IMG/VR virus record: IMGVR_UViG_3300045988_049076
Direction: 5' to 3' (one strand)
DNA: 30,642 nt
Source: a virus
Positions 13,762 through 22,647 of the stretch are shown here, piece after piece. The notes under the pieces were generated by a model. It was not told the origin of the DNA, did not search any database, and saw only the letters and a list, made by a program, of their open reading frames with translations. Position 1 is the first letter of the stretch. Every line of letters starts with the position of its first letter. The translations under genes and the position numbers were made by a program.

Positions 13762-13812
13762 TGTTCCTTTTGTTACCGTATCGGCGTGCCGCGTTATCCT
13801 AAATGATATTAT
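13752..13812 (+). promoter_or_regulatory. Promoter-like element for the opposite-strand acidic-protein gene
   Basis: CGGCGTGTCG at 13752-13761, CGGCGTGCC at 13782-13790, and extended -10 TGATATTAT at 13804-13812. AAAGGAAAGGAA RBS precedes the ATG at 13845. Confidence 0.5.
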
Positions 13813-13844
13813 GGGTATGTAAACCGCAAAGGAAAGGAATTGAA

Positions 13845-14171
13845 ATGAACACCACGGAAATCACCGTAAAGGACTACGACACCTACAAGGAAGTCACTGT
13901 CACTCCGATGGCGGTGTTTGGGTACGGCGACTTCAGCACCATCTTCATCACCGACGCCAACTACCGCGGCCTGTGGCTCAATGGAGACCTCGACTGGCTC
14001 ATCGACGTCAAGGAAGGCGATATCTACGACGCCGAACGTATCGAGGGTATCTTCGGTGCCGATGAAGATGAATGGGAAGCCTCCGCGAACGAGAAGCTCG
14101 CCGACTACGGGTTCCGTCTCGGAGATCTCGATAAGGAGCATGGTGATCGGTATTTTCTGGTCGCCTTGTAG
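13845..14171 (+). CDS. Highly acidic small protein of unknown function (opposite-strand insert)
   Basis: ATG at 13845 within ORF 13803..14171. The 108-aa product has 25 Asp/Glu against 9 Lys/Arg by my count. It has its own promoter-like element and a terminator at 14187-14218. Confidence 0.65.
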   Translation: MNTTEITVKDYDTYKEVTVTPMAVFGYGDFSTIFITDANYRGLWLNGDLDWLIDVKEGDIYDAERIEGIFGADEDEWEASANEKLADYGFRLGDLDKEHGDRYFLVAL

Positions 14172-14186
14172 TCGGCATTGACATTG

Positions 14187-14218
14187 AAAGCCTCCAAGCT
14201 TTATCACTTGGAGGCTTT
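14187..14218. terminator. Bidirectional intrinsic terminator
   Basis: AAAGCCTCCAAG (14187-14198) pairs perfectly with CTTGGAGGCTTT (14207-14218), followed by TTTTA. On the other strand it is preceded by A-rich and followed by T-containing sequence. Confidence 0.75.
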
Positions 14219-19870: not shown

Positions 19871-20116
19871 TCAGGCCTCCTCGATGAACGAGCTGAAGAG
19901 ACTACGATTGTAGAGAATGCCTCCGAGCTTCGAAAGAGCGGTCACCGGATTATCGTAATGCTTGCATGCGGTATCCCACGCTTCGAGTACTTCCTCGTCG
20001 CCGAACTTTGCGCACAGGCCGGAGAAGAACTTCCTCGACTTCTGCTCGCCTTCCCCACTGAAGCGGACGCCGTACCGTTCGACGAGGGTATCGTTGATTC
20101 GATCGTAAACGCTCAT
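19871..20116 (-). CDS. Hypothetical protein, first gene of the leftward early block
   Basis: 81-aa ORF. AAAGGAAC RBS precedes the ATG at 20116. Confidence 0.6.
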   Translation of the reverse strand: MSVYDRINDTLVERYGVRFSGEGEQKSRKFFSGLCAKFGDEEVLEAWDTACKHYDNPVTALSKLGGILYNRSLFSSFIEEA

Positions 20117-20150
20117 TGCTGTGTTCCTTTCTTACTGTTGCGTTACCTCA

Positions 20151-20159
20151 ATCATACCA
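20151..20159 (-). promoter_or_regulatory. Extended -10 (TGGTATGAT) of the leftward early promoter
   Basis: The reverse complement of 20151-20159 is TGGTATGAT, about 35 nt upstream of the ATG at 20116. Confidence 0.45.
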
Positions 20160-20201
20160 CGCAACATCAAAAACCACCAGAGACAACACTCATCAACCAC
20201 A

Positions 20202-20237
20202 CCCCGTACGTCGCATCCCGTATCCCGCGTCCCGTAT
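20202..20237. repeat. Three direct repeats (C/T)CCCGTA(C/T) phased at 14 bp
   Basis: CCCCGTAC at 20202-20209, TCCCGTAT at 20216-20223 and TCCCGTAT at 20230-20237. The third copy overlaps a TATACT -10-like hexamer (20235-20240, + strand). Confidence 0.7.
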
Positions 20238-20246
20238 ACTGTCCCT

Positions 20247-20706
20247 TCACCTCTCACCCTCACCCAACCCCGCCATGGAGTGTTTCTTGAGGGAGTGAGC
20301 GAGCTCTGGTAGAGAGAGTAAGCCTTAAGAGCTGAAGTTTTAAGTGCTTCAGATTAAGGCTTCATGACGGTTTCCGTCGGTCGTTCGGTCGCACGGCGTC
20401 GGTCATAAGAGTGATGCATTACTACCACTGATGCGGCATACCCCAGCAGATCGCGCTACATCTTTGATGTGATGGTGTCGGCACCCCGGTTATTCCACCA
20501 TCGTCTGTTGGGTCGGTTGAACTTCGCACCTCTAACGTGAGTATCAACGAACTGTTAGTCGTCGTCCCATTGACCCAGAGCAAGGGCTGTAGCCGGGGAG
20601 TTGTCGTGCCTCCGCACCCAAGCATGTCCTTTCTGTGGTAGGCTTGGATTTGGACTTTACTCGCCCCATTATAGCACATCGTGCCGTGATGGGGCTTTTC
20701 TTTTAC
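20247..20706 (+). ncRNA. Candidate ~460-nt structured non-coding RNA (family unknown; 5' end and strand inferred)
   Basis: There is no credible ORF. Several nested helices can be drawn by hand and the locus ends in a + strand intrinsic terminator (20663-20706). See findings. Confidence 0.35.
20663..20706 (+). terminator. Strand-specific intrinsic terminator with no upstream protein gene
   Basis: GCCCCAT (20663-20669) pairs with ATGGGGC (20689-20695), with an inner GCAC/GTGC pairing, followed by CTTTTCTTTT. The opposite strand has no T-run. Confidence 0.65.
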
Positions 20707-20893
20707 GTCATCAACTCATCCACCGCATTCCTCCCCCACGCTTTTCACCGCACATACCTCCAGAACGCACGTAAAGGCCCCTCAGACCGATTTTCCCGTC
20801 AAACACAATAACTCGTCAGGACCAACTCACGATAGCCCGTCAGAAAGGCCTTACGCACGAAAACGACGTTCCAGCCCAAAACAGCACCTAAAA

Positions 20894-21113
20894 AGCATCG
20901 AAACCACCAAGCCGTGAGAGAACCACCCAAGCCAGACACGGATCGACTCCTCTCCTTGCCCATTCAGGCCGAGCATCGAGACCAAGATCCGAAGGGCAGC
21001 ATCGAGACCAGGACGGCATCCACCTCGATGCCCAGAGCCATGGAGAGAGCACGGAAAGCATCGAGAAGGCCCCATGGCTCCATGCCACAGACATCGAAGC
21101 ATCCAAGGCTTGG
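20894..21113. repeat. Iteron-like cluster of (A)GCATCGA(G/A)A(C/A)CA repeats with interleaved inverted repeats; candidate origin or protein-binding array
   Basis: Direct copies lie at 20894-20906, 20972-20984, 20998-21010 (the latter two identical 13-mers) and 21057-21067. An inverted copy CTCGATGC is at 21024-21031 and a partial copy at 21092-21099. The inverted repeats are GGCATC/GATGCC (21015-21020/21027-21032), GAGCCATGG/CCATGGCTC (21035-21043/21072-21080) and CCAAG-G-CTTGG (21103-21113). Confidence 0.6.
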
Positions 21114-21120
21114 TTTGGAA

Positions 21121-21240
21121 GACTGGTTTCGTTTCTCTCTCTTTGGAAAGAAAGATTTATCTTTCTTTCTCTCTCTTTAGATTATCTACTAGAGTATCCA
21201 TCTATCTTATAGGGATCTATATTATAGAGTTGCAAATTCT
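21121..21240. other. AT-rich island (about 32% GC) with polypyrimidine direct repeats, a perfect 11-2-11 palindrome and two 13-mer repeats
   Basis: TTTCTCTCTCTTT occurs at 21132-21144 and 21166-21178. GAAAGAAAGAT-TT-ATCTTTCTTTC spans 21146-21169. ATCTAT(C/A)TTATAG occurs at 21200-21212 and 21215-21227. I counted 38 G+C in 120 nt. Confidence 0.7.
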
Positions 21241-21291
21241 GCAGCTTAGCTTGCTGCAGATTCTGCAGCTACCCACTGCACATTCTGCAGC
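21236..21291. repeat. Three exact ATTCTGCAGC repeats (spacing 24 and 22 bp) with extra CTGCAG palindromes
   Basis: Copies lie at 21236-21245, 21260-21269 and 21282-21291. CTGCAGC/GCTGCAG form an inverted pair at 21239-21245/21253-21259. TTGCAA lies at 21230-21235 just upstream. Confidence 0.8.
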
Positions 21292-21394
21292 GGGCGCTGC
21301 AATGGTTGCGGGAGGTGAGAACTCGTACGGGGGGATTGTTCGGGGCTCACATGGGGGGTATATGCCACTCGTTGAACACGAACCATCGGCAATA

Positions 21395-21443
21395 CCAAAA
21401 GGCCCCGGCCAGTCCGGGATTCCTCCCAAGACCGACCGGGGCC
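21395..21443 (-). terminator. Probable terminator after the DUF1064 gene
   Basis: GGCCCCGG (21401-21408) pairs with CCGGGGCC (21436-21443) across a structured 27-nt interior. On the minus strand it is followed by TTTTGG. Confidence 0.5.
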
Positions 21444-21461
21444 ATGCCCGCTCCCAAGTCG

Positions 21462-21797
21462 TCACGTCTCCTTGATGACCTTGCCGTACCGTCGTGCGAA
21501 GAGCTTGCTCTTGAGCCGGTACACGTCAGTCATCATGCCCTTGACATCTTCGACGACCTCCCGGCCATTCTCTACGTAGACGAAGTCGGCCACGTAGAAG
21601 ACAGGCCGGTAATGCCTGCCATCCACGTCGAAGGCCGGTACGAGCTCGTAACGCACCTGGCGTCGAAGATCTTCGATGATTCCGTCTTCCTCCATGCTCT
21701 TCAGGACGAGATACCGGTCAGCCTCACGCCTCGAATCGAAGGTGATGCCATCTACCGTTGTCTTTTTCGCATGGTATTTGCTCCGTCCGCTCCACAT
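21462..21797 (-). CDS. DUF1064-family protein (putative nuclease / Holliday junction resolvase-like)
   Basis: 111 aa. SKYHAKKTTVDGITFDSRREADRYLVL...YVADFVYVENGREVVEDVKG fits the KY.akk..vdG..FdSk.Ea ... aDF.y ... veDvKG pattern. Confidence 0.7.
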   Translation of the reverse strand: MWSGRSKYHAKKTTVDGITFDSRREADRYLVLKSMEEDGIIEDLRRQVRYELVPAFDVDGRHYRPVFYVADFVYVENGREVVEDVKGMMTDVYRLKSKLFARRYGKVIKET

Positions 21798-21800
21798 GGC

Positions 21801-22211
21801 TTACCTCCCGGTGCTTCCGAAGCCGTTGTCGCCACGCTCGGACGGGTTGAACGCAGACACCTGCTCCAATGGTTCGCAGACCACCGGAATCACAACCAGC
21901 TGCGTGACTTTGTCCCCGGCCTCGAACTCATGGTCTTCGCCGCCATGGTTGTAGAGCTTGACCACGATGCTTCCGGTATAACCCTCATCGATGAGCCCGG
22001 CGCTCGTGATGTCGTGCTTGACGTTGAGTCCGCTCTTGCTGACGAGCAGTCCGGCGCATCCACACGGCAATGCCACGTGCACGCCAGTATCGACTATCGC
22101 GTTCCCGTACGCCGGCACCGTCACGGCCTTTGGTGTACGCAGATCAAGTCCCGCGTCGGTCTCGTGGCCTCGTGACGGCATGTACGCTCCGTTGTCCAGC
22201 ATGATTTCCAT
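21801..22211 (-). CDS. dut: dUTP diphosphatase
   Basis: 136 aa with the dUTPase motifs DAGLDL, SKSGL, GLIDEGYTGSI and RGDNGFGSTGR. AAAGGAGG RBS. Confidence 0.9.
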   Translation of the reverse strand: MEIMLDNGAYMPSRGHETDAGLDLRTPKAVTVPAYGNAIVDTGVHVALPCGCAGLLVSKSGLNVKHDITSAGLIDEGYTGSIVVKLYNHGGEDHEFEAGDKVTQLVVIPVVCEPLEQVSAFNPSERGDNGFGSTGR

Positions 22212-22354: not shown

Positions 22355-22591
<237 letters not shown>

Positions 22592-22647
22592 TTTTATTTC
22601 CTTTCTAGGTTGTAGGATTTGCATGTCCTACGTTGTTTGATACACAC

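Follow-up and report, generated by a model that had tools for sequence, protein, structure and literature searches.

The DNA analysed here is the IMG/VR virus record IMGVR_UViG_3300045988_049076, which is 30,642 nucleotides (nt) long and is referred to below, at its full length, as the window. It represents a complete or near-complete genome (~30.6 kilobases, kb) of a tailed phage, and its long minus-strand early operon contains a 1.35-kb gene-free gap (20117-21461). Within this gap lies the subject of this report, a conserved non-coding RNA on the plus strand (20283-20706) that forms multiple helices, ends at its own intrinsic terminator and encodes no protein. In the order of transcription of the operon, the gap is preceded by a dUTPase gene and a DUF1064/resolvase-like gene and followed by a gene of 81 amino acids (aa), beyond which come a 106-aa initiator-like winged-helix protein and then DnaD-like, DnaC-like, Erf and other genes. 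A first-pass annotation, made from the sequence without database searches, had proposed that the gap encodes a large structured plus-strand phage RNA, ended by a terminator and possibly of a new family. Conservation, covariation, a G-U bias and the lack of an Rfam match all support that proposal. The features of the locus are as follows.

20283-20706, plus strand: the RNA gene, with a core of ~422 nt running from UUUCUUGAGGGAG to the terminator U-tract, as defined by homology among 24 sequences
20663-20704, plus strand: intrinsic terminator, stem 20663-75/20683-95 followed by UUUUCUUUU (20696-20704), with a free energy of -22.7 kcal/mol
20170-20282, plus strand: hypervariable C-rich, G-poor region (51 C and 15 G in 113 nt) with ACCCAACCCTC-like repeats, different in every relative
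21801-22211, minus strand: dUTPase gene, before the gap in transcription order
21462-21797, minus strand: DUF1064/resolvase-like gene, before the gap in transcription order
19871-20116, minus strand: 81-aa gene, after the gap in transcription order

Homologues were collected with blastn and nhmmer against fetched relatives, and then by motif scans of viral contigs, metagenomes and bacterial genomes. The motif scans contributed copies from further gut metagenome assemblies and from a second phage group (see below). The resulting set comprises 24 distinct sequences, all from human-gut phage contigs. Homology among them begins at ~20281-20283 and stops just past the U-tract, and the 5′ end placed at 20247 by the first-pass annotation needs correction. 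Identity over 20283-20706 is 79-98% within the group of ~30-kb phages to which the window belongs. Two sets of hits were discarded as chance matches, mostly within apparent coding sequence, namely high-GC soil matches (L093, L094, L098, L101-103, L105, L108, L113 and L118-121; L numbers denote matched contigs) and the contigs L238-242, with the exception of L240.

That no credible gene lies in 20117-21461 had been noted in the first pass, and this stands. The gap contains only short, non-conserved open reading frames (ORFs), and the 85-aa minus-strand ORF at 20422-20679 has no PHROG match. Across 22 homologues no reading frame is conserved and no intact ORF is shared; the longest stop-free stretches vary in frame and position, dropping to 35-42 aa in some, and 1-nt indels are found inside conserved blocks.

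To assess structure, we used RNAalifold together with explicit pair counting over the homologue alignment. At least 12 helices are supported. For 86 pairs in 16 helices, 98.2% of the alignment cells are standard pairs on the plus strand, compared to 87.3% on the minus strand. Changes on both sides are seen at 26 of these pairs, versus 13.2 ± 1.6 in shuffled alignments (0 of 500 shuffles reach 26), and only 4-6 such pairs are obtained when the structures are slid by 1-3 columns as a control. In an alignment of all 24 sequences, including the divergent copies in L115 and L240, 33 of 98 predicted pairs are compensatory, and in L240 the whole stems of P4, P5, P6 and P7 have been swapped for complementary sequence. 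G-U cells outnumber A-C cells by 225 to 19, with seven pairs being near-invariantly G-U, and this excess identifies the plus strand as the RNA strand. Dinucleotide-shuffled controls fold less stably than 20247-20706, with z = -2.5 for the minimum free energy of the plus strand and -2.0 for that of the minus strand, a modest difference that is weak evidence alone. Compensatory changes beyond controls, lack of a conserved frame and G-U strand asymmetry are among the general marks of a structured non-coding RNA gene, and all three are found here. We regard 20283-20706 as almost certainly a genuine new structured RNA gene. Its structural elements are listed below.

20319-20363, plus strand: P2/P2a, a 10-bp invariant stem (20319-28/20354-63) with a hairpin of variable length (20334-37/20347-50)
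20365-20405, plus strand: P3/P3a, stem 20365-70/20400-05 around 20374-80/20389-96, rich in GUCGG repeats
20410-20429, plus strand: P4, hairpin AGUGRUG-CAUURC-YAYCACU
20434-20519, plus strand: P5-P6-P7 three-way domain, with the strongest covariation in the RNA
20434-37/20516-19 and 20442-51/20503-12, plus strand: P5, with 3-6 compensatory pairs and an invariant 20434-37/20516-19 arm
20458-62/20466-70, plus strand: P6, with 4 compensatory pairs
20471-81/20486-502, plus strand: P7, with an invariant internal loop UUAUUC, an apical UCGG-CAYC-CCGG and 4-5 compensatory pairs
20520-20546, plus strand: joiner AAC..GCACCUCUAACGUG.GUAUC, mostly unpaired and near-invariant in sequence
20547-20586, plus strand: P9 (20547-50/20559-62) and P10 (20565-67/20584-86)
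20606-20647, plus strand: P11, GUGC-CUCC-GCAC (20606-17), and P12 (20618-23/20642-47)

These elements differ widely in how they vary. Eight of the ten pairs of the P2 stem never change, and both-side changes occur at three of the four pairs of P2a. P4 shows such changes at five of its seven pairs once L240 and L115 are added; P9 shows them at three of four pairs, in 8-11 sequences, and P10 at one pair. In P11, G-C is replaced by A-U at two pairs, in one and three sequences. P12 has been refolded with different sequence in nearly all homologues (CCAAGC/GCUUGG, CCAAGUAU/AUACUUGG, CCAAAUAU/AUAUUUGG, CCAGUCU/AGACUGG); its length varies, five homologues have an inserted hairpin, and the linker between P12 and the terminator is likewise variable. 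The least certain domain is P3/P3a, in which a single compensatory pair is seen (C-G to U-A in three sequences) and part of which RNAalifold, given 24 sequences, pairs with the 5′ purine-rich segment. A candidate long-range pairing of CUCU (20530-33) with AGAG (20311-14) is 99% compatible and includes a single compensatory event. Invariant stems thus adjoin freely covarying ones, and several unpaired stretches are invariant as well: GAGAGAGUA, CAUAAGAGUG, GCGGCAUACCCC, GGCAYCCCGGUUAUUCCAC, GGGUCGGUUGRAC and GCACCUCUAACGUG. Such a combination is typically seen where an RNA adopts a particular tertiary fold and has a particular partner.

Of the helices drawn by hand in the first-pass annotation, 20321-28/20354-61 stacked on 20332-37/20347-52, 20472-77/20496-501 and 20618-23/20642-47 reappear with covariation, as P2/P2a, P7 and P12, respectively. 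Others give way to different pairings. The proposed long-range helix 20505-14/20572-80 is displaced by P5, in which 20503-12 pairs with 20442-51 and has compensatory support. The helix nested within it (20516-20/20544-48) is likewise displaced, as 20516-19 pairs invariantly with 20434-37, and 20547-50 pairs with 20559-62 in P9, again with compensatory changes. The suggested loop-loop pairing of CCCCGG with CCGGGG is not conserved, most homologues having CUAGGG. A leader helix at 20253-62/20288-99 falls in the hypervariable region.

The RNA matches no curated family in Rfam 15. A cmscan of the whole window at the gathering score gave no match, and scans of the locus and 8 homologous loci at E ≤ 10 returned only unrelated noise, topped by tfoR (13.8-16.2 bits versus a gathering score of 70) and microRNAs. 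In these scans, none of the models that the first-pass annotation had singled out for checking (ROOL, GOLLD, raiA, group I/II introns and tmRNA) was matched, nor were those for OLE, HEARO, RNase P, 6S, riboswitches or C4. ARAGORN found no tRNA or tmRNA in the window. We rejected a group I/II intron on the added ground that the RNA is intergenic in both of its genomic contexts (see below), and a riboswitch or cis-regulatory leader on the ground that the next plus-strand gene lies at ~22707, ~2 kb away and past minus-strand genes, with a convergent gene following the RNA in the second group of phages. Our literature search found no description of this RNA, although it may be one of the more than 10,000 unnamed candidates of PMC10690425.

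The terminator lies exactly where the first-pass annotation had put it. Its stem is formed by G20663-U20672 with G20686-C20695, extended by GC/GC at 20674-75/20683-84, such that G20663-C20695 closes a bulged stem. A simple terminator scanner missed it because of this bulge and interior mismatches. Three pairs show both-side changes, and the U-tract is present in nearly all homologues. On the minus strand the hairpin can form, but no U run follows, and no terminator is seen there.

The 5′ boundary is less sharply marked. In phages of the second group, which have genomes of 35-37 kb (L089, L087/L055, L115 and L240), a -10-like box (CATAAT/TATCAT) lies 3-6 nt 5′ of the core in all five copies (four distinct contigs). 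Given this spacing, transcription in these phages likely starts at the very beginning of the conserved core. The box has decayed to CATGCC in the ~30-kb group, where the core is preceded by the C-rich region 20170-20282, which differs in length and sequence in each relative and shows G runs on its minus strand. For the ~30-kb group, this region is a candidate for the promoter or the 5′ leader of the RNA, although we infer the link. The TATACT hexamer inside it (20235-20240), which the first-pass annotation had offered as a -10 element, fits only a loosely conserved TAnnCT motif, and the longer motif CACGT(C)CCGTAnnCT is only semi-conserved.

The RNA is optional. In ~10 close relatives, the alignment jumps from ~20160 to ~20718, and ~53 nt stand in place of ~558 nt (20161-20718); the RNA, the C-rich upstream region and the terminator are all gone, and the flanks are collinear. 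Among assemblies of at least 22 kb, 15 have the RNA and 13 lack it. Two contigs show partial states. In contig 145351 (L022) the C-rich region is kept and the RNA core is absent, and in contig 070004 (L026) the first ~50 nt of the RNA are kept and the rest is lost through 21096. The short replacement at the site equivalent to 20161-20718 was seen in L002, L003, L005, L016, L019-L021, L030, L036 and L037. This ~53-nt stretch can itself form a small hairpin, with arms that differ between contigs yet remain complementary (GACGG..CCGTC, GGAG..CTCC).

The RNA is also found at a second, unrelated site. Its neighbours in the 35-37-kb phages are a Dp-1-type holin-like gene on one side and a block of HNH endonuclease, ParB-like and small-terminase genes on the other, and the replication genes are kilobases away. 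In L089, L087/L055, L115 and L240, the RNA lies directly upstream of a divergent gene, the start of which matches the Pfam-typed HNH gene of L089; in L089, L087 and L240, the holin-like gene lies at its 3′ end. Homology between the groups begins within a few nt of UUUCUUGAGGG and ends just past the U-tract. The RNA is 77-86% identical in nucleotide sequence between the groups, compared to 57-74% aa identity for shared proteins. In both contexts the RNA is antisense to both of its neighbours. The surroundings of the second-group copies (L089 8529-9585; L087 4445-5494; L115; L240) have several features of their own: the holin-like gene is convergent and begins within a few nt of the RNA terminator, the ribosome-binding site of the HNH gene is ~25 nt from the -10-like box of the RNA, and a free-standing HNH_3/AP2 homing endonuclease gene lies ~1 kb away.

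We scanned one genome each of 185,579 bacterial and archaeal species for two conserved motifs of the RNA and found no match. Phage isolate and plasmid collections likewise gave none, and all true matches are human-gut phage contigs. The GC content of the cassette (52%) is close to that of the window (55%), so composition is not distinctive. Collectively, these data indicate that the RNA is very probably an accessory mobile cassette. They define a family of large accessory phage RNAs that is new and for which there is direct evidence of mobility in the manner of a cassette.

As to the phages themselves, the terminase large subunit (TerL) of the window is nearest to those of Bifidobacterium asteroides phages (49.6%), and the bee Bifidobacterium phage with this nearest TerL, BlindBasel1, has no copy of the RNA. 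About 40 related ~30-kb contigs are present in IMG/VR and human-gut metagenomes. When overlapping stretches from relatives were merged, several products exceeded the listed size of the contig, as would be expected if the genome is circular or terminally redundant and its copies are permuted. The ORFs scanned include no integrase, and hence these phages may be virulent. The sole nucleotide similarity of the window to cultured phages is a stretch of ~300 bp (13855-14173) shared with Bifidobacterium dentium phages: it is 87% identical to sequence at the ends of the BD811P1 and P3 genomes (17.6 kb) and 78% identical to P2. Of 28 related genomes, just 5 have the gene underlying this stretch (13809-14207).

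Several further elements lie around the RNA gene within the gap.

20722-21114, minus strand: ORF-free conserved block outside the cassette, with GCATCGAG iteron-like repeats, defined by conservation profile, repeats and folding
20151-20159, minus strand: extended -10-like TGGTATGAT, 35 nt before the 81-aa gene

Apart from two deletion variants that lack it, nearly all ~30-kb relatives have the block at 20722-21114 with 85-95% conservation, compared to 78-89% nucleotide identity for the surrounding genes. The GCATCGAG repeats stand at 20894, 20972, 20998, 21055 and 21092, with an inverted copy at 21022, and the block also contains a GAGCCATGG...CCATGGCTC inverted repeat (21035-21080) and a long inverted repeat centred on CCATGG. 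Its alifold energy is -88 kcal/mol on the minus strand versus -36 on the plus strand; eight pairs show both-side changes versus 3.2 ± 1.4 in shuffles, and many one-sided G-U changes are seen. In contig 070004, this block was lost along with the RNA. The block could serve as an origin, as a structured leader of the replication operon on the minus strand, or in both roles. The -10-like element, by contrast, is kept as TGGTATACT in every relative, whether or not the cassette is present, and is likely the promoter of the replication operon, divergent from the RNA.

Farther along, 21120-21300 is AT-rich and variable between relatives, with TTTCTCTCTCTTTGGA occurring twice around a perfect 11-bp palindrome (21146-21169) and TGCAnATTCTGCAGC three times at intervals of 22-24 nt (21231-21292); the stretch has the look of an operator, a promoter or DNA for origin unwinding. 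Right after the DUF1064-like gene, a terminator-like hairpin with a T run (21403-21419, minus strand) is kept in relatives. Given this hairpin, early transcription of the minus strand may be split into two units on either side of the gap. An 89-aa ORF (22355-22624, minus strand) includes a run of 13 asparagines encoded by an AAC repeat (14 in relatives); it is kept in most relatives and has no family match.

What might the RNA do? We searched for a protein that could act with it or substitute for it. Whether the RNA is present or absent correlates with no gene of the window and with no ORF cluster among 28 genomes, other than ORFs within the cassette itself and the 106-aa allele, which is physically linked. 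Nor is there significant complementarity to the rest of the phage genome. The best antisense match, a 13-nt complement to two in-frame ATGACCGACGC sites in a head gene, was rejected, as neither site has a ribosome-binding site and other genomes with the RNA do not retain them. No gene on the same strand follows before ~22707, the terminator stops the RNA ahead of the origin-like DNA, and no conserved anti-terminator was found. Resemblances to CRISPR repeats, an anti-Shine-Dalgarno sequence and tetraloop-receptor motifs are too weak to claim.

Our preferred reading, to which we give a probability of about 0.45, is that this is a self-contained, trans-acting folded RNA (an "RNA moron") and that it binds, or imitates, a component of the host or a core component of the phage. 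It would be transcribed from its own promoter, which in the 35-37-kb phages would be the CATAAT/TATCAT box and in the ~30-kb phages a poorly defined element in the C-rich upstream region. It would spread between phages by recombination and would act in trans as a folded RNA, rather than by base-pairing to a neighbouring gene. Because it has invariant unpaired stretches and invariant stems beside covarying ones, and because no phage protein gene co-varies with it, we propose that it adopts a defined tertiary fold that is recognised by, or recognises, a host or core phage factor, as a decoy, sponge or scaffold. Given the patchy, accessory distribution of the RNA, its most plausible benefit would be host takeover or anti-defence.

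Several points weigh against this reading. The idea of a protein- or factor-binding decoy is argued from exclusion of alternatives and from analogy, and no partner was identified. In the window the cassette sits within an origin-like region, where a local role in cis is possible. No convincing promoter is seen in the ~30-kb group: a sigma-70 scan upstream of the core found none, and the sole candidate is the loose TAnnCT motif 45-110 nt upstream, which includes TATACT. We infer the promoter, 5′ end and expression of the RNA from sequence. As for the outer architecture, the 5′ purine-rich segment (UUGAGGGAGKGAGCGAGCUC) has three mutually exclusive pairings, each 96-98% compatible, and none of the three closing-helix alternatives tested has significant covariation. 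Finally, the family is narrow (~25 contigs at 77-98% identity), so several of the compensatory changes are lineage-inherited rather than independent events. Such changes do recur across different helices and different lineages.

A role in cis would have the cassette promoter fire against the incoming operon and so, by convergent transcription or antisense, tune the flanking genes: the replication genes in the window, and the holin and HNH-terminase genes in the second group. It is true that the RNA is antisense to both neighbours in both contexts and that in the window it stands between the conserved minus-strand element and the replication operon. However, a strong one-way terminator is tolerated only when it faces against an operon; this orientation is therefore expected of any such unit, explains the arrangement more simply, and is by itself no argument for antisense regulation. 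The mature RNA overlaps no gene, interference needs neither an elaborate, covarying, tertiary-style structure nor invariant loops, and one and the same RNA is found at two unrelated loci. We consider such a regulator improbable. It is also very unlikely that the RNA serves replication as a primer or origin-activating transcript, like ColE1 RNA II or the early untranslated transcript of lactococcal phage c2. Its transcription does head towards the iteron-rich conserved block, with DnaD-like, DnaC-like and initiator-like genes adjoining, and there is a weak correlation with the neighbouring initiator-like allele (11 of 15 genomes with the RNA versus 4 of 13 without), but physical linkage accounts for the latter. 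A strong terminator precedes the iteron block, the cassette is dispensable in about half of the relatives, and in the 35-37-kb phages the RNA lies between the holin-like and HNH genes, far from the replication genes. It is extremely improbable that the locus is no RNA gene at all and represents instead the remains of a protein gene or an element acting as DNA, for example a single-strand origin or an array of protein-binding sites. Repeat-rich, origin-like surroundings would suit a DNA element, and G-T pairs can form in single-stranded DNA too; yet there is no conserved frame, 1-nt indels fall within conserved blocks, the compensatory pattern and the conserved hairpin and U-tract are signatures of a transcript, and the block moves as a unit from putative promoter to terminator.

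ROOL, GOLLD and OLE are homo-oligomers, as shown by cryo-electron microscopy (PMC12286853), and the RNA described here could be an ornate RNA of the ROOL/GOLLD kind, self-assembling into a homo-oligomeric, RNA-only particle and deriving its function from quaternary structure. Its large size, multiple branches, accessory status in phages, long invariant unpaired segments and lack of a partner protein gene are all in keeping with this. On the other hand, the covariance models of these families are unmatched even at E ≤ 10, no tRNA genes are nearby, and no conserved self-complementary loop was found, the CGCG of the P5/P6 joiner becoming CGCA in L089, L090 and L115. Moreover, at ~420 nt it is below the size of ROOL and GOLLD, which are roughly 580 and 800 nt. 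On balance, we think this unlikely. A new ribozyme, or a very large riboswitch-like sensor with the terminator as read-out, seems quite unlikely as well. The size, invariant joining regions and invariant stems do recall large ribozymes, and 5′ processing would fit with a 5′ leader that varies in one group and a core start that is fixed in the other. However, no model of a known ribozyme or riboswitch is matched, no gene on the same strand follows (the next plus-strand gene is ~2 kb off, beyond minus-strand genes), and a sensor of this kind is hard to reconcile with the variable P12-terminator linker and the failure to find a conserved anti-terminator.

To our knowledge, bacterial and phage non-coding RNAs of more than ~400 nt with this much conserved structure are rare, and nearly every such class that has been studied is a ribozyme, a ribonucleoprotein core or a self-assembling RNA particle. 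A more far-reaching claim, which we hold to be doubtful, is that the RNA represents a new class of large functional RNAs, be it as a ribozyme, as an assembly of RNA alone or as an anti-defence decoy; it would travel among gut Bifidobacterium phages as a gene-sized mobile unit consisting solely of RNA, act on a host target and need no dedicated protein. As the RNA moves between phage lineages as a unit, its function likely pays during infection of an important genus of gut commensals. The RNA is compact enough for structure determination, and near-isogenic phages with and without it provide a natural presence/absence experiment. With an RNA moron, the concept of the moron would no longer be limited to protein genes but would include a large structured RNA, and there would be a concrete handle on the purpose of large phage RNAs.

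Comparison with known systems places the RNA as follows. In function alone, it would be analogous to 6S RNA and CsrB/RsmZ-type protein-sequestering RNAs, as a folded RNA acting in trans whose function lies in conserved unpaired motifs and not in extended antisense segments (here GUCGG and UAAG are repeated); it matches none of their models, however, and is larger and more branched. Untranslated transcripts near origins are known from ColE1 (RNA II), lactococcal phage c2 (an early non-coding transcript) and lambda (oop). Like these, the RNA in the window is structured, non-coding, situated beside an iteron-rich region and replication genes, and aimed at a putative origin; unlike them, it is terminated before the origin-like DNA, is optional and is found elsewhere in other phages. 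With ROOL and GOLLD it shares the character of a large, multi-helix, non-coding accessory RNA in phages of Gram-positive bacteria, with long conserved unpaired segments and no associated protein. It differs from them in having no sequence or structure homology to either, in its length of ~420 nt, in lying away from tRNA genes and in being confined to ~25 gut phage contigs of Bifidobacterium type. Phage morons, as known from lambdoid and HK97-like phages, are autonomous promoter-gene-terminator units between conserved phage genes. The cassette resembles them in its own terminator, its -10-like box in one group, its presence or absence in collinear relatives and its different loci in different phages. 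Its cargo, by contrast, is a structured RNA rather than a protein, no integrase is found among the scanned ORFs, and its base composition is not distinctive. In its life-style, then, the RNA comes closest to the orphan large phage RNAs ROOL and GOLLD, and in its organisation it resembles a phage moron.

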